Shown here: positions 10,031-38,196 of the stretch, piece after piece
How the letters are laid out: each line of letters starts with the position of its first letter
Position numbering within the stretch: the stretch's first letter is position 1
NCBI GenBank assembly: GCA_047495785.1
Contig: JBLDXI010000046.1
Coordinates: 1,364,001-1,428,000 of the forward strand
Origin: Lepidodermella squamata
Lineage: Eukaryota > Animalia > Gastrotricha
Reading direction: 5' to 3'
DNA: 64,000 nt
The notes under the pieces: model-generated
The model's input: the letters and a program-made list of their open reading frames with translations, nothing else
What the model was told of the DNA's origin: nothing
Databases searched by the model: none
Position numbers and translations under genes: made by a program

Positions 10031-10289
10031 CTGCTAGCTTCATCGATGATAAGCCGGCAGAAAATCCATATATAAGGTGACTCATACATGAATTATTAAG
10101 CCAATCGATTCTCATTCAGGTCTCCTGTAATGCGATGAATCATTCTGTGAGCTGGTTCCCCCTAGGGTGTGGGTGTCTAACAGTAGCTCATAGGTTATCA
10201 AGCCGGCTTGATAAAAAAATGAGCGAAGATAACGTCCGTGCCGTGGTAGGTTAAATAGGTTTCCATCTCTTAATTTTTGACATAAAACA

Positions 10290-11817: not shown

Positions 11818-14800
11818 TCATAAACCAGACGAGTCTTCAGGGATAGCCGCAGCAGGCTGTACAACCGTGACATCAGCTGTTACGACATGTGTTTCGTTCC
11901 TCTCCATCATAATCGGATGGACGGAATTTGTGACCGTCGAAGTTCCAGTTGAGCTCACCACAAAACGAATCACCTGAAGCATGAGGCCAGCACTTGTGTT
12001 TGAAATATTTGAAGCATTGCCAGGAGGCTGCTGAAATATTGCCGATGCTGTAACTGTTGAAGTAGATTGCCGCCTTAATTAAACTTGAAAATTAATGTCT
12101 CGATTTCTCAAAGGAATTTTTTTTTACCTGATAACCGTAGTTGTCATGGTTGCAGTTGCATCAGCAGCGCCGTAATTTTCCATCCGTTGATCCAAACAAC
12201 CACTGAAAAAGTTGACAAGTGTCATGATGATCGAAATGAAGATGCATGTGAACGCGATGAGAATTTGCCGCTGGATCTCATGTTGAATCAAAAAATGAAG
12301 CAGCAATGCCGCAACAAGGGTCGAGACGATCATCAGATTAACGATGTAAATAGTCGCCAGTTCGTGGTACCGTCTCATCGATGGGGTTAAATAATACAGT
12401 TTCCTCGACAAATAACAGCCAAGCAAAAGAAGAATGAGAGCAGAAACTCCGAACAACGAAGACCAAATGATTTGGCCAGACGATGAACAAGAAATGTGGT
12501 AAATTTCTGTCATTACATCCTCTTCATAGTTATAAATCGGCTTCTCAGTCTGTAATATAGATCGGCAGGTTATTGGGTCCCATAGAAACCAGTTCATTAT
12601 GAACGCATTTGAAAGCACGAAGATTGAAACTATAGTTAAAACGCTTCGTTTTTCAAGTTTTTTCACGAACTCTGACGTGAAGAATGGGCTGTAATCGATC
12701 AAAACCTTCGAAGCGTCTGTATTTCGAAAGAATTGGCGCTGATGATTCACGATTTGCTTGTTGACACCTCTCACAGCAAGATGTACTGCGACTGCTCTAG
12801 AAAACGATGATCCAATAACCATTGAAGCTCCGAATAGAGATGCAACGACTCGAACTTCCCACATTACTCTAGGATTGTGCTGGCTTTCCATTGTGAACAA
12901 CACCGCAGCGATATTCAAGATAACGCAGCCTAGATACCCGACGCATTTACTCAAAGGCAATACGTGCATGGCTAGGTCGTTTCCGATCTTAAGCCAGGCG
13001 AAAAGCGTTGTCAAAATAACGAAGGCTTGAATCACGATCAGAAATACCGCAACTCCGATTACAGCGTAATAAACGCCCAAGTTAACCTCAGCAATCAGTC
13101 TTCTATCAATCCACTTGTCTCGTGGCGGCTTATTGTCTGGAGTAGTCCATTTTACATCTGAGACGTTTTGAACCCAGTAATGAGTGTATTCGTAGCCCGA
13201 CGTATTGTCGAACTGTCGGACTAAATTGACATAGCGTAGAGATGTTTCTGGTGACCATTGCCCGATCATTTGTAGATCTGCATCAACTTCACCACGTGAG
13301 TTGTACTTCATGCGGCCCATTCTCAGTCCGATGTAGTCTATGCCGATGGCAGATTGGTTAGCGACATCCATGACAAGATGCGGTTGATCTTCGTAATCGG
13401 CAAGTGAAAGGTTGAACTTTCGCAGTGTCATATCAGTATTGTGAAGGATAATTAGTCCTTGCATCGCTGTGTCCTGACAAAAATATTCGACCAGTTAAAT
13501 AAATGTTGGTGAAATATTGGCAGATGTCCTCTTGCCAGTTGAAGGATTATGGCGTAATTCAAGTAGGGCCTTGTCATTTAAATATAACCTCATAGCTCAA
13601 TTTAATTAATATGGAAAAGAATCGTCCCAGTTTAAGACATCAATGGGTCATTGAGACTATGAACTAAAAAGAGTCTCCAATATTGAAGCTTCTCATGGAA
13701 ATTTGGGAAATTTTAATCTCCGACCAATAGTCGATAAACAAATGCTGTCGAAGGAGAAATCTGGTTAAGAGTCTCTCACCTCAAAATCCATCACATTTTC
13801 AGCCCAAGAAAGGGGCCGCTGAAAAACTGTCTTGGCAGCCTAACAATTCTTTCTCTACAAATACCTTAGACTTGCTTGAAGGTATCGCAGAATCTAGAAT
13901 CAAATCCCTCTAATGAGTTAAGGAACTACATTAGCAATGGGACAACTTCCCCATTTTCCAAACCCGCTCGAATGTACGAAAAACTTGGATCATAGGAATC
14001 TGTCTCTTTATGTTGGTTCGTTATGTCTCTTATGCTTAGCGAACTTATTTTGTTGGTAAAAAATGGTGAATAATAGAACTCACATGGCACAGGAACCTTG
14101 AGTCGTAGTCTAGCGGCAAGGTATTATTCGCATACTTATTAAACCGTTCATCGAATTCGAAGCTGTCATAACCAAGCCGAGTTTTCAGAGTCGGTACATC
14201 CGTGAACATCACTGGCGATGTGATGAAAGTAAAGCGCAACTGTTCGATGATAATATCAAGGGAGCAGCCAAAGAGCGCCGGTTCCGGCAGATTCCTCGGA
14301 TCGGAAAATTGGATGCCGAGAATGATGAAAACGTAACGAGATCCAGTTACGCCTCGCTTGTAAGATTCGCATAGAAACTTCCAGATCATCCGGGCAATGG
14401 AGCAAAAGTAGACGATGACCCGCACGTCGTTATGCTTGACCTCATTCAACAAGTCTTCATTGACATCGATAAAATATTCGAACATGGCGACCTTCACATG
14501 GTTTTCGCTCGCAAGCCTCTGGAGGAATGTAGCCGAGACGTAGTCGAAAATATTTTCTGCGAAGATGAGAATTCCGATTCGCTGCCATCTGCCAACTTCT
14601 TTGATGAAATGCATTTGAGCATGGGACAGAACGCGACCCGTTGATCGCATGAGATATAAGTTAGGGTACAGCTTCCGATTGCTGAGAAAAGGAGCCGCGC
14701 ATCCTATGTTCACATCGACTAGGTTTAGGTGGTCCAAAATCGGGCCAACAGCTTTGCAGCCGCTGGAAAACATCGGGCCGACCACAACCGGAGACTTGAT

Positions 14801-15109
14801 TAACGAAGCGTTCGAAGCAGTCGATTGATTGAAATCTCGAATGAATTCGACAACTAAACGGGTTTCGTTCGAACCACCCCCGTCGTCCCGGAAAATAGGA
14901 GTGACCTTGTAGTCCTTCAGAAAGTCTGACCTTTCGTTTGCAGCGTCGAAAGCGATTTGCATGGCGATTTTACACGCTGTTCCGTTGAACGGACTGTTAC
15001 CAGTGAATGACATCATCGTTAAAACGGCCAGCTCGTATCGTTGATACGCTGAAACTAGATCGGCCAGTGCAATCATGTAAGCGACGAGTTCAAAGCGCAT
15101 GTGATTCAT
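11818..15109 (-). CDS. Class C GPCR, GABA-B-like (Venus flytrap + 7TM), paralog 1, ~875 aa
   Basis: Exons 15109-14084, 13473-12128 and 12073-11818 are in frame. ANF-receptor-type domain (VVGPMFSSGC, SNRKLYPNLY, DVRVIV), PPRD linker, seven hydrophobic helices, WFLWDP; no Cys-rich domain. Confidence 0.85.
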
Positions 15110-15819
15110 TTTTTTCAACGAAGCGTGTTTTCTAGATTTTATTCTGTGAAAAATTCCACGCGGTGACAAGTAACAGATCACTAATCAGCGACATTTTTTT
15201 TACCCGCACCTGTAAGAGTTGTCATTTTCGTTCTAAATCACAGGGGCAAATTAATGCTTGTCACCTTATTGATCCGACGTTTCACAACCATAAGCATTTA
15301 TGTCAAAATAGACGCAGCAGTTCCTCGATAGCTGTAGTAATACTTTTCACACTGTAAGTAGCAAGTCCTGTCCAGATGACGCCACCCCCAGGGTGAAGAT
15401 GAGGGAGGATCCGGTCTAGTGGAGAATCTTTCAGAAATAATCGAGTAATATTTGTCCAAATGCGAGGGATGTGTTTCCTAGGGTTTTTCCTATCTGACTG
15501 TATTAATAAAGCCGTTATGGCTCACGCCCTGGAAGAAGTTAAGACAAACTCCCCAATATTGATCGAATTTCGACAACGATATTCTGAGCAAAAATCTTGT
15601 TACAACATGAGCACTTTCCTATCACGAAACGTTATCTTTAGAAGTTCTCTTTCTACAGGCCTCAAATGCCAGGACAAATTCCAGGGGCTCAGTTCTTCGT
15701 TCTTTTGATCTGAAAAACAAATGTAGAAACAGTGAAAGATTTAACCATTTATTGTATCAGTAGGAGGATTAGTATTTTATAGTCTTTAGTCGTCATTGAG
15801 CGACATCGAGTTGCGCACA

Positions 15820-18529
15820 TCACGAACTAGGTTGAATAACTGACACATCAGCTGTGATAATATGAGTTTCAGATTCCAGGTGCTGCTGGCCTCCCGCAAT
15901 AGGGTGAACTGAATTGTTCGCCGTTGAATTTCCCGTTGAGCTTACCACCAATCGAATGACGTGCAGCATCAGCCCAGCACTAGTATTCGAGTTGTTATTA
16001 CCAACACTCGGCGGCTGCTGGAAAATGGCTGACGCAGTGAGAGTGGAGGAGCCTCGTCTTCTAGATAAATGCAAAAATCATATTCCCCGCCGGAAATTTC
16101 AGTGAAATAAGTTTACCTGACAACTGTCGTTGTTACAGTCGCTGTTGCGTCGTTATTTGGGGCGAAAGTTTTCTGCCGATGATCGATGCAGCCGCTGAAA
16201 GAATTGACGACTGTCATCATCACAGAAACGAGAACACAGCCAAATGCAATAACAATTCGCTGCCTCGTCTCGTCTTCAATCAAAAAATGCAGGAGTAGTT
16301 CGGCGACGAAAGTCGAAATTATCATCAGGCTAACGATGTAAATCGTCCCTAGTTCGTGATATTTTCGCATTGAATACGTTAGGTAATAAAGCTTTCTTGA
16401 CATGTAACAGCTCACTATTAACAAGATAAGCCCAGATGCGCCTGAAATTGATGACCAAATAACTAGGCCCGACGAGGAACATTTCACAGAATGCATTATT
16501 GTAGAAGTGTCCTCTTCATAGTTGTAAATAGGATCTTCGTCAATAACTTCAAATTTGCAGAAGATCGGGTCCCATAAGAACCAGTTCATGATAAAGGTGT
16601 TAGATAGAAAAAATATAGAGGCAGCCGTGAGCACACTGCGTTTCTCAAGTTTCCTAACCATGTCCGAGGTGAAAAACGGTCCGTAGTCAATGACGAATTT
16701 CGACGGATCCAAGTTTCGAAAATGCTTGCGTTGATGCGATTGAACCTGTTTGTTGAAGCTGAGAACAGCTTGGTAGATGACGACAACCCTTGAAAAAGAC
16801 GACCCTATAACCATCGCACAGCCGACTAAAGCCGCTACAACGCGAACTTCCCAAATCACGCGGGGATGTTGCTGAGTTTCCATGGTGAATAAGATTGCAG
16901 AGATGTTCAAAATTATGCATCCTAGATACCCGATACATTTGGTAAGTGGCAAGACATGCATTGCTAGATCGTTCCCAATCTTGAGCCAGGCGAAAACTGT
17001 TGTAAGAATCACGAAAATCTGGATAAGGATCAGAAAAGCCGCAACGCCAATTGCCGAGTAATAGAAAGGAATCGGCACCTCACGCGCCATTCGCTTTTCG
17101 ATAACTCTATCCCGCGGGGGTTTGTTGTTTGCAGTTGCCCATCTTGCTTCAGACGTGTTCTGAACCCAGTAATTCTCGTAGTCATACCCTGAAGTGTTGT
17201 CATATTGGCGGACTAAGTTGACGTAATTCAGTGAGGTTTCAGGCGACCATCGACCAATCATTTGAAGATCGGCTTCAACCTCCCCGCGCGAGTTGTACCT
17301 CATCCGCCCCATTCTTAAACCGATATAATCGACACTGATTGCTGACTTATTGACAACACCCATGACAAGTCGTGGATAGTCCTTATAACTGGCCAGGGAA
17401 AGGTTTTGCTTCTTCAACTCCCGGTCCGCATTGTCTAATACGATCAAACTCTGCATTACTGTATCCTATGATAGTATATTTATGAATTAGAGTGAGCTCA
17501 GTGATTTGCGTAACTTACGTGGCACAGAAAACGAAATTCATAATCAAGCGGCTGTTTGTTTTTCGTCAAGACATTGAATCGTCTTTCAAACTCGAGACTA
17601 TCATAGCCGAAATGGTTCTTCAACGTCGGAATATCGTTGAACATTACCGGACCAGTTAGATAGGTGTACCTCAACTGCTCAACAATAATGTCTCGCGAAC
17701 ATCCAAACAAAGTTTCATCAGGTATATTCCTCGGATCGGTGAATTGAATGACAAGAATTATGAAGACGTAACGTGGGCCAGTAATGCCCCTCTTATAAGA
17801 CTCGCAGAAAAACTTCCAGATTAGTCGAGCCATCGAACAGAAGTAGACAATGACTCGAACGTCGTTTCGCTTGATTTCTGTAAACATTTCCTCGGTAACG
17901 TCGAGGAAGTAGTCGAAAATAGTTATCTGAGCTGCATTTTCATTCGCAAGCTTCTGTAGTAACGTAGCCGTGACGTAGTCGAAAATGTTCTCGACGTAGA
18001 TCAAAATTCCGATTCGCTGCCATCTCCCGACGTCTTTGATGAAATGCATCTGAGCAATCGTGAGAGCTCGCCCCGTCGATCGCATCATGTACAGATTGCG
18101 ATAGATCCGACGATCTGTAAGGAAAGGCGCCCCGCAGCCCTGACTTACCTCGACGAGATTCTCATGGTGAAGCATTGGCGCGATGGCTTTACAGCCGCTA
18201 GAAAACATTGCCCCAACAACCAGAGGCGACATGATCACGCTTGAGTTATCGCATTGGTCAAAATGGCGGATGAATTGAACGAGAGCTCGAGCAGCCTTAT
18301 TGCCAGCTCCGTCGTCTTTGTATATCACCTTAAGGTTGTAATCCCCCAATATGTCAGGGCGGCTATTGGCCGCATCAAATGCGATTTGCATGCCAGTTTT
18401 GCAGGCCGTTCCATCGAATGGGTCGTTGCCCGTGAAGGTGGTCATCACGAGGATAGACAGCTCATACTTGGCAAAAGCTGCCAAGTCGATTCGAAAGAGA
18501 ACTAAGAACGATAAGAATACGACTTTCAT
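15820..18529 (-). CDS. Class C GPCR, GABA-B-like (Venus flytrap + 7TM), paralog 2, ~866 aa
   Basis: Exons 18529-17519, 17465-16117 and 16060-15820; same intron positions as paralog 1 and clearly homologous throughout. Confidence 0.85.
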
Positions 18530-19921
18530 TATTTTCTTGCACTGAAAAGTGTCATAACGACTCTTACCTACCCAAGTATAAGCCTTTCTATTAGCACTAC
18601 GTCAAAAACGATTTCATTCAGCAACGCTCTGTCATAATACCTGATTTTTGTTGACCGCAAAACCTTTTTTCGAGGAAAATAACACTTGTTTCCTAATTTG
18701 TGCACTGAACGAAAACAGATGACCACGTGACTGGAACTTTGTTCCTATTCTCAGTCCCAGAACGTGATGCCAGAGAGTTGCAGTTGAATCAATTTAACAT
18801 TTGGTTCCACCTTGTTAGGGCGTCAAAAACTGGGCAGTCGCGGACAAAAACGAAACAAGCGCAAATTGATAATCAATTCAAAAGCGACATTTAACCAGCG
18901 ATAAATGAGAAGAGAGAAGACCTATTATAATAATTGTTTGTTTTTTGTTCTAAAAGGATTAAAAGCTGGAAACTTTTTTTAATGCATAAATTATTTCATT
19001 TTGCTCTTTTGTCGCTTTGTTCACGTTTTTCTGTAGCACTTTGAGCCCAACCAAGTATTTTTATGAGGCTGATTTTATTATAGATCATATTATTTTTATT
19101 ATTCATTATTTTTGCGCTATAAAACCGATAAAACTCCCAATTTATTGCTATATGGCACGTGATTGATAATCGGAAGAAAGAGGATGATGAATAAATGTAT
19201 TGCCTATATTGCATTCCGTTTGCCCAATTTGCCATAATAATGTGTCAAATAAGCTTTTAGTAATTGTCTCGCTCGGCTTTGCGTTTTGATAAGAAAGCGC
19301 ACGACCTTGAATTTTTCGTGTCCAATTTTCGAGTCGCGCGACCTAATGAGTGTAAGCACGTGGACTATAAGGGCGTCACTCTGCTACTACAGTAATCACG
19401 GCGACTCTGTTTTTCTCGTATTTTTACGTATTTTGGCTATACAACTACCAGACAAACAGGCCGGTGATAATGACCGGGCGCAGACTGATCAATTTTTATA
19501 AAAATCAAATCTGCATAGCCGCGGGCGTCAGGAATTTGTGATAGCCTGTAAAATAGGTACACGACGCCTAGTTTTTTCACGCTAAATTTCACCGATAATT
19601 CAGCTCGTGTTTATATACAGTGATGATAGGAGCATCGAGTGGTCACTGTGTAGTGCGATTGCGATTGCGCACTCTGCGCTGTTTTCCGCTCGTTTTTTTT
19701 GCACCGAGTGCGTGTTATTTTTCGGTTGAAATAAATCTGAGACGCAACTTCCTCGTGGGCAAGATCTACGCGTATTAGTCACTCACTGCGTAAAACGTAG
19801 GTGTGCAGAATGACCATCATTAGCAGTTTATATATTTCCCACCTTGCCTACATTTCAATTTTAGATTGATTTCAACGCCTAGATTTTAGTAGTTTCAGGT
19901 TTTTTTCTAATTTTCAACTGG

Positions 19922-22900
19922 ATGGAGCCGAATTTTTCGCGGCTTGGGCCGATCGATTTTACCGATTGCCTTATCGATAGCCCGTATTTTCGCGAAAATT
20001 TATGCCGGCAAGAGCGAAAGATTAGAAAAACAAAACAAGCCATCGGACTCATTATCGAAAATTGCCGCAATATTATAAAATGCACAAAAGGTTTGACTCA
20101 TTTTTTTAAATATGAAAAATTTAGAAAAATCATAGTAATTAGGAAAAAAATTGTTTCGACTATAATCTGGCTCAGCATATTTTTTAAAAATTTCAAAAAA
20201 ATTTTTAAATTATTTTGAATTTTTGGTCAAGATTTGTGAATTTTTAAACTCGATTTTTTTAGCTCTATCGGAGGCGTATCGAGCATTTGCAGTATCTCTG
20301 TTCCGGTTCGGTCAAAGTGATTGCGACGGTGACGAGGAAGGCGGGGATTTTATCAAAAGCATTGCCGCTCTTATTATGAAAGTCGAAGGCGAACGGGACG
20401 ACATTCCTGGTCAGATAGAGGAAGCTTTTATCAAACCACTCAACCGTGCATTCTCATCGGTCGATTTTCAGGTATGCTAAAAACGGAAAATTCCTACATT
20501 TTTTGTGAAACTTGAGTCGGCAAAATGTCCAGCATGAGCGAAAACTAGTCGAAATCGAAAGCAACAGATTTCAATCCGTTCTCGATACGTATCAATCGAA
20601 CCCAGATCACTTACCTGTGAGAAATTCATAAATACACAAGAATTGAAATATTATTTAATTTTTTCTTTTTAGATTCAGGCTGACCAAAGCGCTTTCATCG
20701 AACAATCCTTGAATTACTATCATCAAGTGCAATCTTTCCAGCTATTTAAACGTTACGAATTCGTTGATAGCGTAAATTTCCAATTTTTTATTAATTTTAT
20801 TAAATTTTTATTTTTCTCTATTTCAGCTCGCCTGTTTTGTTAATCATCAAATGAATTTTTATCACCTCAGCTATGAAATGTTGAATAGCTCAAAGCCGCT
20901 GCGGCAAATTAACGCTCAACTCCAAGAGGTGCTTAGCATTATATCAATCACGTTGCACTTCACCTGCTTTTTTTTTATCATCCAAGATGCACGCTGAAGT
21001 CGATCGATCGGCAATTATGACAGAAACTAGAAAAGACCTTGTGTTATCGGTGAGATCAGACACAAATCGCAATCACGTGCTTATATATCGATTTTTTTGA
21101 TTCTATAATTTCAGAACCCTGTCGAATATTTACGCCATTCACTTCACAAATCGCCCGTCATGCTAAGCTATTTGCTGCTGATGCGAAGTAGGGAAAAAAT
21201 TCCAATTTAATTAATTAATTAATTAAATTTTTCAGAATCAATTTTCGGCAATGTCTGGGTCGAATGCTTCTGCGAATTTCAGAGAGATGACGGAATTTTA
21301 CAAATCAGTCCCTCCAGCCCTTATACAAATTTTTCAGCTATTTTTGAGGTAATTCTTCATCAGTCAAATAAATCGGATTTTTTTATTAATTTTTTTGTAT
21401 AGGCTGAAATAATTTCGAATAATTCAGTGACATTTCTTGTAAGGCGTTGTTGGCCATGCGACGATGCCGCTGATTGGACGGGGCGGCCTTATTGCTTCAA
21501 GGTCACGCTTGATCACGTGCCAGATCGCAGCCCTGCTGTTAAGCAGCCCCATCAGGACGTTGTTTTAGTCTTTCAAGCTCAGGACGCCGCTGAGAGGCGG
21601 ATATGGCTCGAGGCGCTCGGCTTCATCTACCCACACTTGGTTGGCTATTTAATCAAAAAATAATAATTTCGAATTATTTTCTATTCATTGAACAGGACTT
21701 TTGTCCAGATCTCGTTGTTAATCAAAGCGGTAAATTGAATTACTAATTAAATTTAAATCGATTGACCTGGAATTTTTTTAACAGCGTTGTTGATCGATTC
21801 TGGCCTCAAATTTTTGACGACTTGTTGCGAGGCGATTGAAACTAACAGCATCGATTGTTCAGGGCTGTACCGAATTCCGGGTGCCAAGCCGCGAGTCTCC
21901 GATCTCCTGAGGCATGCAATGAGTGAGTGAATAATTTATTCCAAATATTTTGAATAATTTTGCTTTTATTATAGGAAGCGATATCGCGTTTGATGACGCG
22001 AAATTGAAGGAATATCTTTGGAACGAGGCCAGGGACGATGTCAATACGGTGACAAGTGCGGTATTAGCCTTTGTCGGGGGTTTTACTGAACCCTTGACAA
22101 CTTACGATCTCTACGACCATTTCATCTACGCGTCATGTAAGAATTTTAATTTTTCAATTTTTTTGAAATTTTTGAAAAACAAAATTTTATTTTTTAATTA
22201 ATCTTAATTTTGATATTTTCTTAATTTTTAGCTTTGGACGATGATGTCAAGCTGATAAGGTCTACCCACTACCTAATTCACAGGCTACCGGCAAATAATT
22301 TCAAATTGTTGAAGGTGCTATTCAAACATCTCGCCAAGTTTGTGCCAGCACCCTTAAAAATTTCGATCAATTTTATTTTTATTTTTTTTGTCTCGCAGGG
22401 TGGCTAATAACAGTGACGTCAATAAAATGACGACATACAATCTCGCTGTCTGCTTCGGTCCAGCTATTCTCCGCCACCGCAGCCAGTCATGCACGGTTGA
22501 CGGCGTGAAACAGGGCAACAAAGTCGTCCTTGTTCTCATCGAACACTACGCCAAGGTGAAAAAAATCTCGATTTTCCAATTCTTGTCAACCGACAATTTT
22601 ATTTTTAGATTTTCGAAACTCGCCCACCTGTCGCGGATATTGAGGCCTTGCGAAGAACGTGGCGGTCTAATGTCGCCAAACCCGCATCCCCGACCCGGCC
22701 AGCTTTCCATCAAAGCATCAGTCTATTCTTCACGAATTTATCCGGAAAAGCAAGGTTCGGGACATCGTCGAATCGCCGGGCAGATTCGCCTACAAACACG
22801 CCAGACCAAAGCCGGCATAGCAATAATTCGAATAACAGCGAGCATTTAATGACGACGTCTTCATTGGATAACGATGACAATCGAACGAGGAATATGACGT

Positions 22901-23052
22901 CGATACTCAGCGAATCGTCGAACCGGACGGCGGGGTTTGATAGTCCGAAGAGTTCGGCGCGAAATCGATCGCCAACTTCTGGGTCGATAAACACGAATCT
23001 TGACACGTTGAGTGAAATCGATGTGGCTCCGCAGCCTAGCAATTTAGTTTGA
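19922..23052 (+). CDS. BAR-PH-RhoGAP protein (GRAF/oligophrenin family), no C-terminal SH3
   Basis: N-terminal IDFTDCLIDSPYFRENL is the GRAF/OPHN1-type BAR start. PH end VFQAQDAAERRIWLEAL; arginine finger GLYRIPG; EPLTTYDLY; NKMTTYNLAVCFGPAIL; Ser-rich tail; many short introns. Confidence 0.9.
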
Positions 23053-23211
23053 ATTTTTACCTTTTTTCTTATGCATCGAGATATAATGTATACTTTGAAC
23101 GAAAATAAAATAAAAAAATTTGTAAAAAATCAGAAAAATCGGGAATCACCTTGCCCGCAAAAATCGATTTTTATTTCAATTTTATTGTATAATATTTTAA
23201 AAGTTCGAATT

Positions 23212-26200
23212 TTAGTTCTGGCCAACAGATGGTTTCTGCTTTCGCAAACCACGCCGCCGAGTTGTAGGAATTATTCTGCCATTATTTGCCGGCGTTGTAT
23301 TCAAGAACGTTTGCTCTATCATTCTTATAATGTCAACGGCACCCGCTGCCTTCGCCACATCTAGCGGCGTTTGGCCTTTCAAGTTGGTCGCGAACATGAG
23401 TTGCGGGCATTTCGATCGTAGATACCGCCCGACTGGGAGATGGTTGTATGTCGCGACGAGATGCATAGCATTATCGCCGTTGAACTCGGCATCGGTTGTC
23501 GCATTCGTGTCCGCGCCTCGTTCGACGAGGTATTGAACGGCTAGCAGACGGCCGTTGCCTGCGGCTCGCAGAAATGGTGTTGTCCCGTGGTAGCCTCGAT
23601 TTTCCAGACTAGCGTTCCTTGCGTCAAGCAAGTAGGCTATTATATTGGTGTGACCCCCTGTCATGGAAAAAAGACATTAATGAGCAAGTAATTATTCACA
23701 ATTCACATAATTATTTTAGCCAGAGCCAAATTTCAAGGACTGTTATTTAATTGGCACCCAATCTTTTACTCACTCTCCTTTGACTAAGGCTAAAAGAAGA
23801 GCGTGTCTCATAAGTTGCACAACCACATTTAATTTTAATTTTGAATTTAATTATTCAATTTATATGATTTTTTTGAAATTGAACCAACCGGGAGAATCTT
23901 CGGCAGACCGTCATAACAGCAAATACCCAAAACAGCAAACGCGACAAAACGGCAACTTTTTAAACTTGCGACATAACAGCAGAAACACGATGCATCTTTT
24001 ACATAGTAAGTTTTGTCGCGAAATAAAAAATTTGCTGTTTTGTCGCCGTACTGAATCTTCCTTCCTTTATACGCCATTTTACCGAAGAATTTAAAAAGTT
24101 AGCCGAAGAAACCCGCAAAACTCTAACTGGTTCGGTAATTTATGGTATTTTACTCGGTTGGACTAAATTTTTGCAGATTTTTTATTCCCATTGAATTTTT
24201 CCAAGATTTTCTGATGATGACATATATGGCTTCATTCCAGAGTTTCTGATCGGTTTTCAGTTCATTTTCTTTTTTTTCTGATTTTGTTGGCTGAACCATA
24301 AATGTTGGAAAACATTTAGCTTGAGCTAAATAGTTAGTTCAAGCTAAATTTAGGCAGGACATATGCTTAATTGAGACATCCACCCATCTTCATCCATTTT
24401 CTCTTGTCCAACTGGCCTCATTGTCTGCAGTTATCCGTTGCTTTAAAGCAATAATCTTGTTATATTCCTCCCTCGTACTTAAAGGGCTCGTCTCGCTTTG
24501 GATAATTTTTAATTGATTCTGACCTTCTTTTTGAGCTCGTTAATTAACTCATAATTAATTGAGTATGATTGATATAATGAGCTCAAGACAAACCCATCGT
24601 GATTCGTGTAACCTATTTTCTGAAAATGAGGGGTCCCGCAACCGCATGGTGCATTGAAAAAAGTGCGAAGCTAGTCGCTCAACTGAATAGCTGATATTGG
24701 CTGACTCAGATCTTCAATTCAACCCTAACCCAAGCCCTAGACTTAGGCCTCCCTAATCCTAACCCTAACCCTAACCCTAGCTCCAACCTCCAACCCTAAC
24801 CCTAACATCTAAAACATATATGCGAACAGCCATTTTCCGTTGTTAAAAATTCAAAATTGAAGCCAAAGATCACAAAAATAACAGCAGAATCCTGGAATAA
24901 TGCTAAGGTGGATTTGAAGCTTAACTGATACCTACCGGAAGCAGCAGCATTCAATGCCGTGTCATTGAGATAAGTCCGCTCTTCCAGCAACTCGGGATGC
25001 ATTTCTAACAGAAACTTGAGCACAGGTAACTGCCCAAAAGCCGCGGCTAAATGATGCGCCATGTTACCCCTCGGTTCATCGACCGCAGTTACAGAAGCAT
25101 TCCGCGACAAGAAATACCGGCAAAGCCCGAGCTCGCCCCTCGAAGCTGCGTACATCAACGGGGTTCGATACAGATTACTCGCTCGAGTTTCAATATCAGC
25201 AGATCGGTTTTCTAACAGATAAGCCACCATGAACATGTTAGCGGCTATTGTCGCTCGGACGAGCACTGTTTCGTTATTGTCATTCTTCATTTCGATCAAA
25301 TCGGGAAACTTGTCCAGCAAATACGACGTGATAAGTGTTCGATTGAACTCGACCGCTAAATGGATGGCTGAGTTGCCCTGGGCGTAATCTCTAGCTCTAA
25401 CATCAGCCCCATGTTCGACTAGGACCTTCACAACACCAAGAGATTGTTCCTCGGGTAGGGCCTGAATCGTCAAAGCGTTGAGTAAGGGTGTCCGTCCAAG
25501 ATTCCCGGCACCCCGATTTTCGAGATTCGCAGATTTGTTCAGGGCGAGAAACTCAACGACCGAAACTTGGCCTTTCAACGCGGCTCGATTCAGAGGGGTA
25601 TCGTTGAGTGAAGTCCTGACTTCGGTTAGATTGCCATCGTAGTTCAGCAGGTAGTCCAAAACCCTTAACTGGCCATTCTCCGCAGCGAGATGGACAACAT
25701 TCCCACGGCCTTTGTCGCTTTCAGCAGCTGATAGAGACGCGTTTGCTACTTCAACGAGGAATTTAACAACCTCAACATTGCCAGCCATTGCTGCTTTCAT
25801 TAGCGGGGTTCTGTAACCCTCCCCGCGGACTTCGATCTTAGCGGAGAAGTTTTGAACAAGTAGTTGGACAACACTCAGCTGGTTTTCTTCCGCAGCGATC
25901 AGTAATGGTGTATTCGAGGCATTGTTACGAGCTTCCACTGTATCAGGAGCTGCATGGGCTAGAAAAGCGACTACTTCAGGCAAGTCATTCTCCGCAGCTA
26001 GATGGATTGCCAGTGAGTTTTTAGACATATCCCTAGCTCTGATATCAGCACTCATGTTATTGACGAGGTACTTCACGATGCTAAGCTGACCCTCTGCAGC
26101 TGCTTCCATCAAAGGTGTCCGGCCGTAGTTGTTTTCGTTCCGGTTTTCAACCAGGTCTTTACGCTCTTCAGCTATTTTAACCTGCCGTTCGAGCATTTCT

Positions 26201-26702
26201 ACAAGGATTGACAGGTCGCCTGAAGCAGCGGCTTGGTGAACTCTCCACGCCTCTGCTTTCACGTCTAGAAACAGAAGGTTTAGGGTTTTGGATTTCAGAA
26301 CTGAGACGCATACCCATGACACATTTTCCGATAGGAGGCCACCAATGCTCGCGTGTGACGCAAACACTGATTTCGTCACCTTGCACGTGGAAACCAGCCC
26401 AGCAGCGCAATGTGACAACGGTTTTTGCAGGGACAACGGTATTATTCTCAATCTCAGTCTCGTTTGCTACTAAATCGCCCAGGTCGATCACCGGAACAGT
26501 GCACTATAAGACATGGATAACGCGAGGATTACTGAAGCTGGAAGAACTAACATTTTCGAATTCTCCATTTTCCGACGGGAGAAGGTCGACCAAGTCAGAA
26601 TCCTAGAAAGAGGTTTCTAAATAAGTCATGACAGCAGGTTCAACTAACCGCAATTCCATTTGTTATAGAAATTGTCAAAATAAGAGAAATCCACAGAGAC
26701 AT
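23212..26702 (-). CDS. Secreted signal peptide + sushi/CCP + ~16 ankyrin-repeat glycoprotein, ~689 aa
   Basis: Exons 26702-26649, 26602-26552, 26503-26314, 26264-24936 and 23657-23212 are all phase-compatible. Signal MSLWISLILTISITNGIA; sushi C...RCWAGF...C...W.PPIGKC; TPL..AA..G repeats; no TM segment. Confidence 0.85.
24719..24806. repeat. Degenerate interstitial (CCCTAA)n tract inside the last intron of the ankyrin gene
   Basis: Repeated aaccct units with variants (aagccct, aatcct, aacctcc). Confidence 0.85.
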
Positions 26703-27009
26703 GATGCGATTTGTATTTGACTTTGATCTGAGCTTAAGTAGAAGTAAAACTAGAATTCTGGGTGCCAATTCAACGCCGCCAGTGCAGCACTTGCGTAAAT
26801 GTTGCCATATTAATAGATTGAAACTAAGACGACGCTGCGTCGTATTTTTCCTTATGGCTCGATTTTCATTGATGCTCTGCCTTTCACCCTGGCCCCTACT
26901 ACGTCAATGCATTCGGATGCGTGACCTTGATAAAAGACATAAACACCACCACAGAAAACGTCCCTGTATTTGTTTTCAAGAAGAAGTAACACAGCAAAGC
27001 AAAAGATGG

Positions 27010-28903
27010 TCATATTAATTGATGATAAGTTGAAGTTCTATTCCGTTTTCGTGTGGCTGATCGAACTGCGGTTACTAGGCCTCTAAAATTATTCAAAGTA
27101 TCATTATGTGAGCATTCTTTTCGATGACTCACCGTTGTTAGACTTTCGTGAATCTTGTTTATTGGCAAATTCATAGGGTAAACCTTGCCGAGAGCAAAGC
27201 TAGCTCGTCGGATAGTAGTTGGATGCATAGGCCTCTTCTCATCAAACTTCTGTGCGATAGGCTCGAATGGAACCGGCTTGATCACTTCAGAAATCTCCAG
27301 GGTCAACTCGTGCTCGTAAAGGCAAACCAGAACGAAAAGTACCATGCATTCGAACCCGGAGATGAGAAAGAAGTACCCAGAGATACCAGCACGCCACATG
27401 CCCTGTTGGTTACAATTGTAAGTCGTGTAAAGCAAGGCGAAATCGTCGAATGCCGCGACTCCGCTAAACAGCGCCAGAACCATTGACGCCATGAGCATGT
27501 AGGAAAATTTGCGGAAATAATCGTTGATTGCTCTCATATCAGTTTTGATAAACTCTCTATCACGGCGGAAGAATCGTAACCGTACTGCCAACATGACTAG
27601 AACGACGAAATTTAAAGCCGCGGCTAAGAAGCTCAAAACGTATAAGCATTGAAGAACGGAAGCTTTCAACGGCGCCATAGCTCCCAGAGTTACGTAACCG
27701 ATCACAGCCGGCTTAGCCATGGAACTGCCGTTGATAACGTCGTTTCCAAACGCAATGAACTTCGTGGCATCCACCGTCATGCCAACTGAAAATGTGTCGT
27801 TTAGCTGTAGAATTTCGCAGGTATTAGAGCTATTCGTTGATAAGTCGCTGCATAAATTCCCATCGCTAGCTACAACATCCAGGGCAACCAAAGCTGCGGA
27901 CTGATTCGAGTCGTAGTGAATTCCGACGAAATCACCCTGGTAAATCGCTATCCTATCATCGACATTAATTACAAAGGCTTGAAGGCCAGGGTCGGTGATT
28001 TGAAGTTGATTCGAGTCGACCAGAGTAAGCTTCGAACGATTCGCTACAAAACGCCATACGTCGATGTTTATCGTTCCCGTAGTTGAGGCGACTATGTCCC
28101 ATTGGCGCAGATCGCCCGAACATTGGAACTGCATCTTCGGGAAAAGGTAGGAGCCGAAAGGGGGTAGAGTGACATTGGTCGAGGAAATACCGACACCAGG
28201 ACTCTCCTGAGCTATTGCTTCTTCATAAACAAACCTACTGTCCCCCGTCGTGCAAATATCGGAGTTTGCATCGCCACCGGGTAAACACTGGTCTGGAAAA
28301 TGAATCATTTTAACTTATAGAAGGAAGAAAATGACCAGTCTCACCATCTGGTCGGCAAGTAGGAGCTTGGGACCATACACATCCTGATGAATTGCAGGTA
28401 CAAAAAACGTCAGAAGCGTATCGCATCGTCGATAGATATCCCTCCTGGCAAGTGTATCTTACATGGACAGCGCCATACTGAGTGTCATTCACGTAAGTTG
28501 CGCCTTGAACGTAAGGCGCCTGACTCGGGTCACACGTGTCGAAAACTCCGGCAGTACGGCGGCTCGTCAGATTTTTGCCTAAGCCATCTTTCGGCAGATA
28601 TTTCACCTTCGCCGCAGATATGAAGTTCATGTTGAAATCTCCCAGCGGGGCGCAGAAAATTGTTTCGAAATCTGTAGCAGCCAGGGCTTGTTCAATGTCG
28701 AAGATGCCATTTGTACTCGTTGCGTTGTGCCGCGCTAGACAGGCATCCCATAGACCGACTTGCACGCGGTCAACTTCGCCGTCATTCTCGCTAAAGTAGA
28801 CGTACTGCAGGCGTCGTGGGACTAAAATAACGCCGAGCAGGCAAATTATGATAGTTGCTGATAGAACTATACACACACGAGAGAGAAAGGTAACCCGCTT
28901 CAT
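27010..28903 (-). CDS. Claudin/PMP22-like four-TM protein with a sushi domain and a second beta-rich domain inserted in extracellular loop 1, ~613 aa
   Basis: Exons 28903-28345 and 28292-27010. TM1 is followed by GLWDAC...FC (claudin-superfamily signature), a sushi domain (CDP...YTCQEGY...FC...W..APTC), a FQCSG..W...VWR...GDFVGI domain, then three further TM helices. Confidence 0.75.
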
Positions 28904-29123
28904 GGCGATATAGAGCGAAGAATGAAGGAATTATAATCGAGCTTACAAGCAACATAATACTGCTGCCAATCATTTAGAATCAGCTAATATTTCTCACCTT
29001 GAAGGAATATTTAAGGCAGATAACGATTTATTTTCATCACTCTGTCATGTCAGAAGACGATTTTGATTTCGCCGGGTTAGCGGCGAAAGAGAAGCACCAA
29101 TCAATATCATAAATGTCCTATTA

Positions 29124-30344
29124 TTAGTTATCACCACGGCGCGGAGGGCGTCGAGCTCCTTCACGTTGGAATGGAGTTTGGCCAAAAACGTTATTCGCAA
29201 CTCCGCCATTCGTAGCTCCTGCAGCCACGGTTGCGTTACCTAAACAGTAGGTCTGGGTTTCGTAGACAGTTGGAGAGTTGACTTGCGTCTCGCCGGTTGG
29301 GCAGGTCTTAGATGCCAGCGTAGGCCTGCAGAAATACTTGTTCTTGTCAGTGTTCTTACATATAATGTAGGAGAGCTGAAAAATCGAACTTTTCAACGAA
29401 ATTCCAATGATTCGAAATATTTATTTACCGTATTAAGGTAGCTCAAGCAATCGAAACGGGTGCTGTTCAGGGTGTTTAGAACGTCGGCAGCGGCAGAAGA
29501 CGGGGCTGTTGCTGAGAAGACCTGGTCGCTGAGAGGAGCCATATTGAATGGGCAGAATGTGAAATCAGGGAAGCAGTCGGGTCTCCAGGCAGTTTCGTTG
29601 TAGCAGGGAATAAACGCGTAGTAAAAGGCAGCGGCTTTAGCCGAGGCGAAAGTTTTGGTTGAAACCTTTTCCTCGCCAGTAAAACAGCCCGGTGTTTCAA
29701 GGCGGAGCTTGGGGAAAACTAGCTTTCCTGGTCCTCTTCGCTCGCGATTCTTGCCAGGGCCGAAGTTTTGGCGGATGGTGCAGCGAAGGTAAGTCTTGCT
29801 AATGTCGCTACAGGAATCAGTCCAGAAACGCATGATTTCGTTGGTTGGCTGGCTCAAGCGGTAAACCAAGTTGTTCTGAAAAAACAGAAAAATGAAACTC
29901 AAGGATACAGGCTGGCTATTTCAAACATACTGTAGCATCAACGGTTCCGTTCGGGCAAGTTTCGTCTCCTTTCGGCGAATAAGCTCCACATTTGAATAGA
30001 AGCTTAGTTCCGTTTCGCTGGAAGCAGACGGACTGATCAAGAGGCTGGCTGCTATTTAGGGGTTCAGCTCCAAAGTCTACTCGGCCATCGCGACGAATTG
30101 TGCGATTGAAATCCTTGTTTTCTTCTGGCATTTCGATTTCAGCAGAATCTGTGTAGGCAGCCGAACTGTTGCTCTGGCCAGGAGCAGCTGGGACATCTCC
30201 ACCAATGCCTTTCGTTTTTGCTTTGTCATTCGCCTTGTCCTGAGCAGCGATTGTTTCCAATTGAGCAGACCTGTCGGTTGATGTGCAGGCCTCCACAACG
30301 CTGCTACACAGCAGGATAGATAGAATAAATTGCTTGAAAAACAT
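29124..30344 (-). CDS. Unknown secreted Cys-rich protein, family member A
   Basis: Exons 30344-29931, 29875-29429 and 29375-29124; signal peptide followed by Cys; homologous to members B, C and D. Confidence 0.85.
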
Positions 30345-31109
30345 TTCTTCAATAAAAAACTAGGTGGGCAAAAATGAAGCTATGCAAATATTTTGAGCCC
30401 TTTTTATTGCCTGTAAACAGCTACGGTATATGTATAACTATACTGTTTCCTGTTACAGATGAGTGCCACGATTTTATTATATACAAATGTGATATACATT
30501 TGTCATTACTCATACGAGAACGCTTGCGTCAATTAAATGTTAAGCGTGTAGCCTATTAAGATGCTGTCATCTTAATAATATAATCAGCCTGTTTCTTTCA
30601 TGACTTCCACGGCGAGCTTTCTCGACTTCCCAGCCCCCACTTTGGCACTCATTCGCTGCGCCGTTTTCATAAAAAAATGACAAAATGACCCAGGGTAGTT
30701 TTTTTTATGAACAAGGTGCCGCAGGTCAGCTTTCCAGGTGTGGAAAATCGCACAATAAAGTCCGAATGTTTAGGCCCATATTTTGTCTATTTAGGAATTC
30801 AAATTTGTTGGCTCAAGCTTGGTTTTTGTCTAGGGCGCTACGTTAATTTTCCTATTATTTCTCTTATTCGGTAAAGAGTGGCTGCGCTATGAAGAAATAT
30901 CGTATGGTATTTTAGCCGTGTTCGAAGTTCGAACAACATTTTGGAAACGCTCAAAATGTGTTACTTTCGTTGGCGGCGAAAATAACGAAAATAACAGTTC
31001 CGTGAAGTTTTATAAGTAGCCCACATTTTATTTCATCTGGTTGTTCTAAGAAAATGATAACTGTCGCTTAGCACCATTTTACATTCTACTGGTTTTTCTG
31101 GTTTTCGCT

Positions 31110-32313
31110 TCATTTGAAACCGTTTCTTGGGCGTTGAGCTGCGAATCGTTGAAAGGAGGTTGGCCCAACAACACTGCTGCTTCCCCCTGCAGTGGTTGCC
31201 GCAGTGAAGCAAGCTGTCTGTGTTTCGTAGACAGTTGGCGCATTAACCTGAGTCTCGTCAGTTGAACACGTCGCGGACACTAGTGTTGGTCTGCAGTAAT
31301 ACTTGCTCTGCGAGTTCTTGCACAAGACATACGAGAGCTGAAAAGAAACCATGGCGTAAAATTCTGTTAAACGCTATCTGTGAAATGTAATTACGGAATT
31401 AAGGTAAGCCATGCAATCCGCTCGAGTGCTATTCATAGTAGTAAGAACATCGGCTGAAGATGCAGCAGTTGCTTCAAACACTTTATCGCTAAGAGGTGCC
31501 ATATTTTGCGGGCAGAATGTGAAGTCTGGGAAGCAATCGGGGCGCCAAGCTGTAGTGTTGTAGCAGGGAATAAATGCGTAGTAAAAAGCAGCGGCTTTCG
31601 CCGAAGCGAATGTCTTGGTAGAAACTTTCTCTTCGCCAGTGAAGCAGCCTGGAGATTCGAGGCGAAGTTTCGGGAAAACCAACCCACTCGGTCCCCCGCC
31701 TCGAGGCTTCCCAGGGCCGAAATTCCGTCGAATAATGCAGCGAATATAGCTTTTAGAAACATCGCTACATAAATCGGTGTAGAAGCGCATGATTTCGTTT
31801 GTCGGCTGGCTCAATCGGTACAGGAGACCACTCTGTATCAGAGGCAATTTAAAAAGGGCTATGAGGACTCGAATTTCAAATTACTGATGCATCGGTAGTG
31901 CCGTTTGGACATGATTCATCACCTTTTGGGGAGTAAGCTGCGCATTTAAACAGCAACTGGGTTCCGTTTCGCTGGAAGCAGACGGACTGATCAAGAGGTT
32001 GGCTGCTGTTCAGAGGCTCAGCCCCGAAATCCGTTCGCCCATCGCGACGAATCGATCTATCGAAATCTTGGCCTTCGCCTGGCATCATAATCTCAGATGA
32101 GTTGGAATAAGCGGCGGAGGAGTTAGTTTGTCCAGGTGCGGCCGGGATGTCCTGGCCGATTCCTCTCACCTTCGATTTGTCATTGGCCTTATCAGAGGCT
32201 GAGATCGCCGCGAGTTGGGCCGATTTGTCGGTTGTTGTGCAGGCTGAGACTAAACTCCATCCTAAAATAGCGGCAAAGAAGGCGCAGAAAACTAATTTTC
32301 TGAGATAATACAT
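31110..32313 (-). CDS. Unknown secreted Cys-rich protein, family member B
   Basis: Exons 32313-31885, 31832-31395 and 31337-31110; close paralog of A with identical intron positions. Confidence 0.85.
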
Positions 32314-33127
32314 GTTTCTTCTTCTTGAGGGAGAGTTCTGAGCGATTCTCGCATCTCATTCTCCGACGCTTAAATAGCATTGGCTGCTGGTCATCTAGAG
32401 GTACGCTTTCCTGTTTGAAAAAACTAGGTTATTTAAAGTGTATACCGCCACAGTATAATACGTTATCATTGCGTAATTGTACTTCATTTCACATCTGTCC
32501 ATTTTGCCCTTTTGGCATGATTTATTACTACTCATAGCGTTTTGCAATTATTAATTCAATTTCTTGGTATATTTTTGTATTAATATATGGAATACTAGCT
32601 TTCCTGTTATTTCGTTAACTCGTTCGCTCGCGTAATTGTTTTGGACCGAGGCGTCAGCTTTGCATGCGCTGTTGGTATTCTGTTAGTAAAAACGTGTTTT
32701 TTGCCGGCATACCTATATTTTTATTAGTTACAAAGTGTCAATTTAATTTCTGGAACTGTTCCAAGCATAAGCCTCTTATAGTATAAGTTTTCCCCGTTAT
32801 ATTAAAGGATCTGCTATTTAATTGCTTATAACTTGAACCTAAATCAAATTCCAGTTGAACCCTATGATTTCTGTTAATGAGATCAGCTTTTGCCTTTTAC
32901 GTTGAACATTTTGCCAGAGGTTAGAAGCTCAATAAAGAAACATACAGAACTTAAGCCTGCTGTTTTCACTGTTATCCACGATCGTCTCGTAAAACGAGTC
33001 ATACCAGATGGACAAAGAGTTGACCTGGGAGCTGGGAGTATTCCGAGAAGCGGTTGTAAAGGGGCTCCTATTCTCAAAATCTGTAAGCTGTCTTTACTTG
33101 AGCTTACTAATGGAGTTTTATTCCTAA

Positions 33128-35102: not shown

Positions 35103-36266
35103 TTAGCGGCCAGCAGCCAGAGTGGTTGAACCAACAATTTGAGAACAGCCGTTAGAATTACCAGCAGTTTGGCAGGCGGCCAAGCTGCTCCATGGAGTGG
35201 TACCGCCGTTATAAATGGGGCCCTCGCTACCCAAGCAGTTCGGAGTAATTTCCGAAACACGACAACCGCACTTTGTATTGACAGGGTCCTTGCACAGAAC
35301 GAAGGATTTCTACAAAGGGTTAAAGCTCTTTATACTGCAAATAGCAGCACTGATATTCCTTACGTTTGCCAAAGCAGACTTGCATGTGTTGCGCGCAGTT
35401 TCAACGGCAGCTGTGACGTTGGTCGTGGATGAGTCGACTGATGCTTTGAACGGGTCAAGGGAGGTGATGCGCGTCATGCCAGGCGGGCACGTTGTGAAGT
35501 CAGGGAAGCAGTCCGCTTTCAGAGCATTCGTGTTGTTCGGGGCGCAGGCGATGAATGCGTAATATTGAGAGCATGCGCTCAGTGAGTTAAAGCTAGTGGT
35601 GCCAACGGCGATCTCCTGCTCTTTGCCGTCCGAGTTTGTATCGCAGGAGGTACGGCAACGAGGCAGAGCCATCTTGCCTGGTGGCGGCAGATTGGTGGTA
35701 ACCGCCGCAACTGGAGGTGGGGGACTGGGAACGCAGCGCTTGAACGTCCTCGGAACATCACCACACTGCTTGACCCAGAAACGACAAAGCTCGCTGGTCG
35801 GTTGGCTCCACAGGTAGCGCATGCCGAACATGTTGTTGGTGTTGTTCGGGCAGGTTTCCGATCCGAGGTTCGAGTAGGCGCCGCACTTGAAGTTGATCGT
35901 TGAGTAGTTGCGATTGAAGCAGATCAGCTCGTTTTTAGCAATTGTCTGGCGAGGGTAGGGCCGCTCAGCACCAAAATCATTGACACCATCTCGCACTGGG
36001 TTTTTCGGGTCGCTGCCGTCTGTTCCAGCGCCGTAGCCTGTGTCGTTGAGGTACTGGTCGTTGTCCTGGCCTGGAAGAGCCGGAATATCCATCCCGAGTG
36101 GGCGATGGGAAGCCAAGTCGTTGTCGCTCTCTGGTGGGAGCGTGGCGCCCGGAGCTAAAGCCTTGTATCGCCGGTCATTTGTCGTTGTGCAAGACAGGAC
36201 AGCTTGACCGAAGAGGGCAATAGATGCTAGACTGAGAACAAAGTTCTGGATCATGTTGATGCTCAA
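35103..36266 (-). CDS. Unknown secreted Cys-rich protein, family member C
   Basis: Exon 1 36266-35364, exon 2 from ~35309 to TAA at 35103; TATA box at ~36309-36316; ends STTLAAGR. Confidence 0.85.
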
Positions 36267-38196
36267 AAAACAAAAAGTTGAATGATTCTGAAATTGAACT
36301 GGTTTAGCTTATATAAAGGTGTTTGCGTAGGCGCGTGAGGCGAATTGCTCCCCCAATTAAGCTATTAATCTTCCGTTTTTATTGCTTGGGCGTAAAGAGG
36401 TGCCCAGTGCTGCTTAAGGTGTCAAGGCGCCTACTTGACGCCAGTTAGCGGCTCAGAACAATAGCGGTTCGTTCACTGTAATCCGATTATCCTCACTGCG
36501 TGACACAGCCGTTGTGTTTCGCTGTTGGAGATCATTGCACCTGTATATCTATATCAGCTGATAGGATTTCGCATCTCTTGAAACAGGATTCCGTGAAATA
36601 CAACCAAGTAGAAATACGCAAGTGGGTGTGAAAGCTGAAATGATCGTATTCAGTACTGACATTACAGCTTAAGATCCAAATAAAGCCACACTTTAAGAAA
36701 ACACCAATGCCAACTAGCACTTGGTCAGGTGATTATTTATAGGCTGCTTTGATTTGGTGAAACAGAACTTTTCGGGCAAAGAATGACAACAAATTTGCAG
36801 AATTTTTTTGAATTTCTTTCCGTTTTATCCTAAGCTATTCCGTACTGTTATTCATTCGTGACGATAGGTACTGCAAATATTTTTCGATGAAGGAATTACT
36901 GCTGCCGCTAGTTACCCGTAGCAAACTGGGCCCGGTAACTCCTTCTCGTGTTGCAGAACGGTTGAATTCGAAATGAAACCATGTTATATGTAATTAATAG
37001 TTTCTAAGCATGAGCCTAATGACATGTTGTTGTTTATTAAGCTGGATTTATTAATGACTGTTGCGTAAAACTTGTGCTGAAGTTGGGCGCGCTTAGGCGA
37101 CGAGGGCAAAGCGAGAGAATAGTAGGGTTCTGCGCGAACGATAGAACTTCGGATGGCGCTGCTACGGTAGAATAAACTGTCGAATCCGAGTAGCTGAGTA
37201 GTAAAATCACAAGCGCTACAAGCGCCTAGCGAAACAAGGTTTTAGCGGGCTTATTAATGACATCAATTTTTGAAATTAGGATATACTATTTTTGCGTGCG
37301 CCTAAGTCAAGAGAAGGCAATTAGTCAATTGTGATACGAATTTATTGGGCTGCCGCTTGTTTCGTGTTTAAACAAGAAATAGTACGCTCAGTAGCTACAA
37401 AAACCGCTGGGGTGTGGGTATCTACAAAACACCCCGCAAAAGTTGCAGCTGAATTTTCAGTAAGAATTAAATGCAAATGTTCCCGCCGATAATTTGAAAG
37501 TCGTTTATCACAAGATAACTGGGCCGCTTTCCTCTAGTTAAATAGCTGGAGCACGTCGACCCAGCGCTGGTACCTCAAGCTCGAGTCGCATAGTTCGGCC
37601 ACCTTCGGCCAGGAAAATTATCAGCGCATTATATGGAGCTCGCCTCACTTAGGAGCTGATGTAGCTTCCGGAATTTTCTAACGCGCAAGCTCTGAAGTAC
37701 ATAATATAAGTCCGAACCGTAGCGCTTATAAATCTACCCGCTGTTTCAGTTTTCATCAGTGGTTCGCAAATACCTTTCACCACGTGCACAAGAGTGGCGC
37801 ATGCGGCCGGTCCTGCGTGCGCCACTGATTTATTCTTATGCATTCTCCTCAACTAACCAATTAAAAGGATATAATTTTCAGATTTTTTCAAAAATTATTT
37901 GGTTTTCCGCGAATTGTACCAAGTTGGACGTGGACCTTCATATGTCATAGGTCTAAATGGGTACATTCGAAACAAAAATCGGTCTATCACGCCTTTTAAT
38001 TATATATTGATTTGACTACAGGGTTGAATCATATATGTATATAACTGCGAGTTCCAGCCTTTGAATGCAAAACGTCGGGGCTTTATGATCAAAACTTTCT
38101 GTACCTCATGAGACTTTGTTATAGACCCAGGACTTATTCAGGGAAGCAAGAAATACCCTACATTGTGGAACCACTGGTAAGTTGAACCTTGGCGCG

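Follow-up and report, generated by a model that had tools for sequence, protein, structure and literature searches.

A five-exon gene on the minus strand of a 64,000-nucleotide (64-kb) stretch of DNA from the gastrotrich Lepidodermella squamata (contig JBLDXI010000046.1, positions 1,364,001 to 1,428,000; hereafter, the window, with positions counted from its first letter) encodes a 689-residue protein, in which a segment resembling a signal peptide and a sushi domain precede 16 ankyrin (ANK) repeats. The spliced gene is confirmed to be real, and secretory routing of the protein is well supported by the signal-like first exon, the four-cysteine sushi domain, the splicing, an excess of N-glycosylation sequons (N-x-S/T), and relatives with extracellular hallmarks. 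The protein probably enters the endoplasmic reticulum (ER), acquires N-glycans, and leaves the cell as a soluble, glycan-coated extracellular binder; a cytosolic ANK array would have been recruited behind a secretion cassette.

The two 5'-terminal exons, which are missing from the open reading frame (ORF) track and had been proposed in the original prediction from the DNA letters alone, are open in frame with the rest of the gene (Table 1). Together, the five exons form an open frame of 689 codons, and the four introns (46, 48, 49, and 1278 nucleotides) are all of the GT–AG type. The first in-frame ATG is at 26702, two ATGs upstream of it being both out of frame. Two public runs cover the stretch, namely X1, probably RNA (the type having been guessed by the tool), and X2. 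In contigs of X1, all four introns are missing, with boundaries exactly as modelled and CT..AC ends; among the four junctions are the three whose verification had been suggested at the outset (26649/26602, 26552/26503, and 26314/26264). A single X1 contig runs through the first two exons into exon 3, of which it has 20 letters, the short side of the second junction; another one covers the sushi-to-ANK junction, with 47 letters of exon 3 spliced to exon 4; and one X1 contig ends in poly-T at 23151, just beyond two AATAAA signals. In X2 contigs, introns 1–3 are read through unspliced. Two alternative exon 4/5 boundaries were rejected, as they break the frame. Continuity of the signal peptide and the ANK array within one transcript is what we infer from overlapping junctions of one probable RNA study.

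The reading frame is under purifying selection, as seen from the comparison with X2. Among 28 base differences in the region 25900–26950, 18 are coding and 10 non-coding; 14 out of 18 coding differences are silent, and the other four sites yield three changes, I13V (two sites in one codon), E50D, and I129T. All four indels of this region lie within introns 1–3 or 5' of the ATG, and all 10 further differences in exon 4 found among the 40 of 277 rows listed are silent. Since the differences are mostly silent and the indels fall outside the coding sequence, this selection extends to the three small 5' exons.

Residues 1–18 have a hydrophobic core of 11 residues, positions −3 and −1 are occupied by small residues, and cleavage is predicted at the exon 1/exon 2 junction; exon 1 thus looks like a signal peptide. 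Just 98 residues, that is, the signal-like segment, a linker, and the sushi domain, precede the ANK array. The sushi domain scores above the Pfam cut-off (PF00084, 26.3 bits vs. 20.7, E 1e-5), and its closest PDB matches are the complement receptors CR1, CR2, DAF, and MCP. Exon 4 matches PF12796 with 223 bits and PF00023 with 164 bits, and exon 5 also matches ANK families of Pfam. The 16 repeats, counted by hand using repeat anchors, lie within residues 105–660; a repeat-level hidden Markov model fragmented the repeats and scored only four of them in this protein. Both fold and sequence searches retrieve ankyrins, NompC, and designed ankyrin repeat proteins (DARPins), the single-sequence fold of exon 4 being poor (predicted local distance difference test, pLDDT, 62). 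The repeat count, the Pfam matches, and the X1 junction bear out the early description of a sushi domain spliced onto about 16 ANK repeats in a product of 689 amino acids.

The absence of a hydrophobic segment downstream, also part of that description, holds as well: no transmembrane (TM) segment is seen in the 689-residue protein, where the highest hydropathy of a 19-residue window is 1.66, inside an ANK helix. A possible TM exon was looked for in intron 4, in its read-through, and further downstream to 21500 on the minus strand, and no TM-coding frame was found; a TM isoform produced by intron-4 read-through was rejected, as no 19-residue window of the resulting tail exceeds 1.6. Inspection of the basic C-terminus revealed neither a KDEL-type retention end nor a glycosylphosphatidylinositol (GPI)-type end, and the Pfam scan of the protein yielded only sushi and ANK, with no toxin or enzyme domain.

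No named ortholog is present among the database hits, the best named ones having 24–29% identity. The full HMMER scan identified P0175, an unnamed ENA record of 783 amino acids from a cluster of three, which is 48% identical to the studied protein and colinear with it over approximately 550 residues. As the alignment begins at the start of exon 4, this record is probably an ORF call lacking upstream exons; intron 4 is not present at the corresponding place in P0175. P0175 has 12 sequons in its ANK part, and among 14 aligned sites of the studied protein, six coincide exactly and 10 are within three columns. Its tail of 213 amino acids is mucin-like (44% Ser/Thr), predicted to be disordered, and contains seven more sequons; the AlphaFold model is confident for approximately residues 10–570. 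On the phylogenetic tree, P0175 is sister to the studied protein (support 99/98), and four short paralogs with 32–38% identity, P0005, P0325, P0029, and P0008, form the sister group to this pair (91/92, not starred), P0325 being the one near relative that a third search, based on alignment A1, added. These short paralogs, which show no visible export signal, are presumed to be cytosolic; the hydrophobic stretch at the start of the P0005 ORF may represent either read-through or a real signal. An unusual first ANK repeat is common to the studied protein and three of the four. One more relative, P0007, has a sushi-like module with four Cys and a Trp, after which come a linker rich in sequons and an ANK array; this module and the studied sushi domain are 25% identical over the full length (shuffle p 0.0003).

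Other searches yielded little. No second ANK gene was found by tblastn within the window, no relative in prokaryote genomes (0 out of 120 candidate stretches), a single generic match with 25% identity (L001) in metagenome contigs, and only generic ANK clusters in the Atlas search with P0175.

The ANK part of the protein (590 amino acids) contains 15 sequons, 13 of which have no Pro at +3. These are exactly the sequons originally reported, three others, at the beginning of the sushi domain or within it (residues 35, 49, and 55), having been overlooked. Shuffling of the ANK part, where Asn accounts for 8.6% of residues, yields 4.9 ± 2.0 sequons, and 15 are reached once in 20000 shuffles; look-alike control motifs occur two to seven times. 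The sequon excess survives the correction for composition (z 5.1 vs. the control maximum of 3.35). Comparison with other ANK proteins and with presumed cytosolic ORF pieces of the window, in place of the cytosolic ANK proteins of the same genome proposed originally as controls, points the same way: the sequon density in the ANK part is 2.54 per 100 amino acids, vs. the mean of 0.51 in 39 ANK hits (maximum 2.01, in P0007) and 0.47 in eight presumed cytosolic ORF pieces of the window (10 sequons in 2128 amino acids, one piece reaching 1.91). In seven presumed extracellular ORF pieces of the window, it is 1.47 (36 sequons in 2450 amino acids).

The sequons also tend to occupy a particular place on the repeat. 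Defining a zone at offsets 19–23 from the repeat anchor, i.e., covering the last part of the outer helix and the loop after it, we observe zone sequons in nine out of 16 repeats of the studied protein (one of the nine falling after the last repeat), six out of 16 in P0175, none out of 28 in the four short paralogs, and 166 out of 3208 anchors in a set of 217 generic ANK proteins. In the P0175 model, eight out of 12 ANK sequons are situated at or just past the outer-helix ends. Judging by the secondary structure of this model and by general ANK geometry, the zone would lie on the solenoid's back, remote from the face that usually serves for binding. The usual recognition site of ANK proteins is formed by the hairpin and the short helix (PMC7826745). 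Between P0175 and the studied protein, the sequon density and the zone are kept, while individual sites shift. Taking all this into account, the suggestion that the sequons reflect selection for glycosylation is only partly supported, namely, as regards the density and position common to both proteins, but not as regards individual sites, whose Asn residues are no better conserved than others, nor as regards uniqueness, as some ANK segments are denser (see below).

Several observations weigh against extracellular function or weaken the arguments for it. At the level of the transcript, X1 has a gap at approximately 26361–26483, and the signal peptide and the ANK array are never found on one X1 contig. 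The n-region of the signal-like segment lacks a basic residue. Two out of 15 ANK sequons have Pro at +3, and in the alignment with P0175, Asn is conserved in seven out of 14 sequons vs. 16 out of 32 other Asn positions (Fisher p 1.0). Among 200 aligned ANK segments, 10 have a sequon density of at least 2.0, three of these being P0175 alleles, and two are denser than the studied protein; both are Asn-rich arrays with no evident signal peptide. Two out of 157 generic proteins with at least eight anchors match or exceed the zone fraction of this protein, and the zone p-values are optimistic, as the zone was set post hoc, the repeats are not independent, and one site is past the last repeat. Furthermore, four ANK sequons are in the hairpin region and one is between the helices, near the binding face. 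As for the relatives, the cytosolic state of the four short paralogs is a presumption only, the sushi module of P0007 scores below the Pfam cut-off (18.3 vs. 20.7, E 0.003), its ANK part clusters with P0004 and not with the studied protein, and both P0175 and P0007 are known from records with no visible 5' exons.

We propose the following scheme, in which every step past splicing is inferred. Exon 1 would act as a cleaved signal peptide, and the Cys pairs of the sushi domain would form two disulfides in the ER. Glycans attached at the ends of the outer helices would cover the back of the ANK solenoid, leaving the concave face, formed by the hairpins and inner helices, mostly free to grip an extracellular protein in the manner of a natural DARPin. 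The sushi domain and the basic tail may provide a second contact, or else a tether to the surface coat or matrix. As for the origin, a secretion cassette may have captured a pre-existing ANK array, as suggested by the phase-1 intron that precedes this array and by sister genes poor in sequons: an array from a lineage-specific, likely cytosolic, ANK family would have been joined via this intron to a cassette of signal peptide and sushi domain, with the sequons gained after the fusion.

Other explanations have to be considered. The best surviving one, which we still regard as unlikely, is that the protein is a secreted effector delivered into a host or prey, its ANK array binding host proteins, possibly inside host cells. 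Phylloxera effector candidates are rich in ANK domains (PMC7376646, PMC7601026), secreted ANK effectors of oomycetes (PMC11139960) and latrotoxins (PMC8630228) provide further precedents, and the basic tail could be an uptake or nuclear signal. However, no toxin or enzyme domain is seen in Pfam, and the matches to latrotoxins are restricted to their ANK region; moreover, the disulfide module, the glycan sites, and the mucin-like tail of P0175 suit a protein that stays outside cells, and the listed coding differences are mostly silent.

A somewhat lower probability is assigned to the possibility that the protein enters the secretory pathway and functions within its lumen, as a scaffold or sorting partner that another protein holds in place. 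The sequence evidence presented here speaks only for luminal entry, and Toxoplasma RON9 needs RON10 to exit the ER and has not been seen in host cells (PMC3299665). At the same time, the studied protein has neither a retention motif nor a TM segment. A long mucin-like tail, such as that of P0175, is found more typically in proteins that are secreted or displayed at the surface.

It is just as improbable that the working product is cytosolic or nuclear, either because the signal is too weak or because an ANK-only isoform is the major one, the sequons then stemming from Asn-rich composition and repeat copying. The lack of an X1 contig common to exons 1 and 4, the high Asn content of the ANK part, the existence of sequon-rich generic ANK proteins, and the ordinary conservation of individual sequon sites would agree with this. 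On the other hand, the sushi-to-ANK junction is present in X1, the sequon excess withstands composition shuffling and exceeds that of the control motifs, the three 5' exons are open in X2 with mostly silent differences, and P0175 and P0007 carry extracellular hallmarks of their own. Finally, horizontal transfer of the ANK exons from a bacterium or phage (Wolbachia-like), followed by domestication behind an animal signal peptide, is very improbable: the long intron-poor ANK exon and five Wolbachia phage records with 27–30% identity might suggest it, but these matches are at the generic ANK level, no relative was found among the 120 candidate stretches of prokaryote genomes, and the nearest sequences belong to an unnamed ANK family.

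Thus, the interpretation of the protein as an extracellular binding scaffold, put forward in the original prediction, agrees with the evidence as far as secretory routing is concerned (the signal-like exon, sushi domain, splicing, sequon excess, and relatives), whereas the immune, venom, and matrix roles suggested for it are indistinguishable. In animals, extracellular recognition relies on immunoglobulin, leucine-rich repeat, and lectin folds, and ANK repeats are almost wholly intracellular. Against this background, one may tentatively suggest that, in this lineage, a family of cytosolic ankyrins has become a repertoire for extracellular recognition, a set of natural glycosylated DARPins, with ANK arrays captured behind cassettes of signal peptide and sushi domain, perhaps twice (the studied gene with P0175, and P0007 with P0004), with soluble and mucin-stalked forms, glycans on the back, and the binding face open. 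A spliced and conserved signal–sushi–ANK gene with sequon-poor sisters is a natural experiment on how a fold of the cytosol can be adapted to the secretory pathway; it indicates where ANK scaffolds tolerate glycans, which is relevant to the design of secreted DARPins.

Table 1. Features of the sushi–ANK gene, listed in the order of transcription. Positions are those of the window.
Feature	Positions	Strand	Evidence
Exon 1, residues 1–18: signal-peptide-like segment	26649..26702	minus	Sequence, hydropathy, X1 junction, first in-frame ATG
Exon 2, residues 19–35: short acidic linker	26552..26602	minus	Sequence and X1 contig
Exon 3, residues 36–98: sushi/CCP domain with Cys36/69/83/96 and Trp	26314..26503	minus	Pfam PF00084, PDB matches
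Exon 4, residues 99–541: ANK repeats 1–13 (part), 12 sequons	24936..26264	minus	Pfam Ank/Ank_2, X1 junction, fold search
Intron 4, 1278 nucleotides: high-copy repeat and CCCTAA array	23658..24935	minus
Exon 5, residues 542–689: rest of ANK repeat 13 to repeat 16, three sequons, basic C-terminal tail, stop	23212..23657	minus
Two AATAAA signals (starts 23186, 23175) and poly(A) site near 23151	23151..23186	minus	Sequence; X1 poly-T loose end

Some further features of the locus were observed. Upstream of the ATG of the ANK gene, an out-of-frame ORF of 12 codons starts at 26808, and a low-depth X1 contig at 26714–26823 changes strand, which is probably an artefact. Intron 4 harbors a very high-copy repeat at 23720–24130 (X2 depth >13000 vs. 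approximately 100) and a degenerate CCCTAA array of nine copies at 24751–24806. At the other end, a RhoGAP gene (21400–23150, plus strand) is convergent with the ANK gene, the 3' ends of the two nearly touching at 23050–23150.

The upstream neighbor (27010–28930, minus strand) is likely a four-TM, claudin-like gene of two long exons, whose very large first outer loop includes a module resembling sushi (E 0.51 for the Pfam sushi family, below the cut-off), with no other Pfam hit; X1 contigs do not cover it. Four related genes of Cys-rich proteins with signal-peptide-like starts are arranged in two pairs (29393–32355, 35310–36308, and 39516–40496, minus strand); the three pieces scanned have no Pfam hit, and the stretch 29429–30132 is spliced in X1. 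Two divergent class C (GABA-B-like) receptor genes stand in tandem at 12124–18601 (minus strand); ANF_receptor matches the one ectodomain scanned, and the one TM-region piece scanned has no Pfam match. A single ORF of approximately 400 codons with a signal-peptide-like start (10281–11501, plus strand) encodes a protein that matches a PQQ_2/BamB-type propeller (E 7e-8) and may be of bacterial type. Three plus-strand loci were used as controls, namely, a JIP3-like gene with the RH1 domain (46705–55937), a reverse-transcriptase-like fragment judged by eye (58203–58955), and brat/NCL-1 with RING and NHL domains (60432–63415). The source animal is a bilaterian invertebrate on a long branch, which the tree of the brat NHL region does not assign to a phylum.

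Comparison with known systems shows several partial likenesses. Latrotoxins had been named as the precedent for extracellular ANK repeats, and they are not the only one: RON9 of Toxoplasma gondii already combines a predicted signal peptide, five to six ANK repeats, and one sushi domain, and passes the ER (PMC3299665), the same domain types and routing being predicted here. In RON9, however, the sushi domain is in the C-terminal part, PEST repeats are N-terminal, and a C-terminal TM segment is predicted (PMC3299665), whereas in the studied protein, the sushi domain is N-terminal to an array of 16 repeats, and no TM segment is seen. RON9 is an apicomplexan rhoptry protein, and the window carries animal genes, e.g., brat/NCL-1; the likeness is one of shared domain types.

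Latrotoxins of widow spiders are similar to the studied protein, as predicted here, in being secreted animal proteins that carry a signal peptide at the N-terminus, along with a long ANK solenoid outside cells, and differ in their N-terminal pore-forming domains (connector, helical-bundle, and plug) and a mature size of approximately 130 kDa (PMC8630228); the studied protein has no pore-forming domain and a sushi domain instead. Thus, it has the defining features of neither RON9 nor latrotoxins. Secreted ANK effectors of oomycetes (PMC11139960) and effector candidates of grape phylloxera (PMC7376646, PMC7601026) likewise are eukaryotic proteins combining a signal peptide with an ANK array, and one oomycete ANK effector depended on its signal peptide for activity, possibly exerted in the apoplast (PMC11139960); these proteins are linked to plant parasitism, and no sushi domain or glycan pattern is noted for them in the available text. 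Cvel_12347 (P0267) of Chromera velia shares the hydrophobic N-terminus, has more than 20 ANK repeats, and bears N-A-S sequons at the same repeat position, but differs in having C-terminal TM segments and no sushi domain, and does not group with the studied protein in the tree. This uncharacterised protein of 2070 amino acids is in its own right a candidate extracellular ANK receptor. Ankyrin-R/B, NompC, and DARPins have the same fold with no sequence-level orthology (best named matches as above), and natural canonical ANK scaffolds bind intracellular partners (PMC7826745). No signal–sushi–ANK layout in an animal was found in the full-text literature as far as it was accessible, including the available parts of PMC6278862, PMC3315490, and PMC8242945, where no such protein appears; supplements, e.g., tables of phylloxera effectors, may hold some. 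The idea of secretory ANK proteins is thus already known, and what the gene of L. squamata adds to it is a new layout in an animal, open to testing, rather than a new principle.

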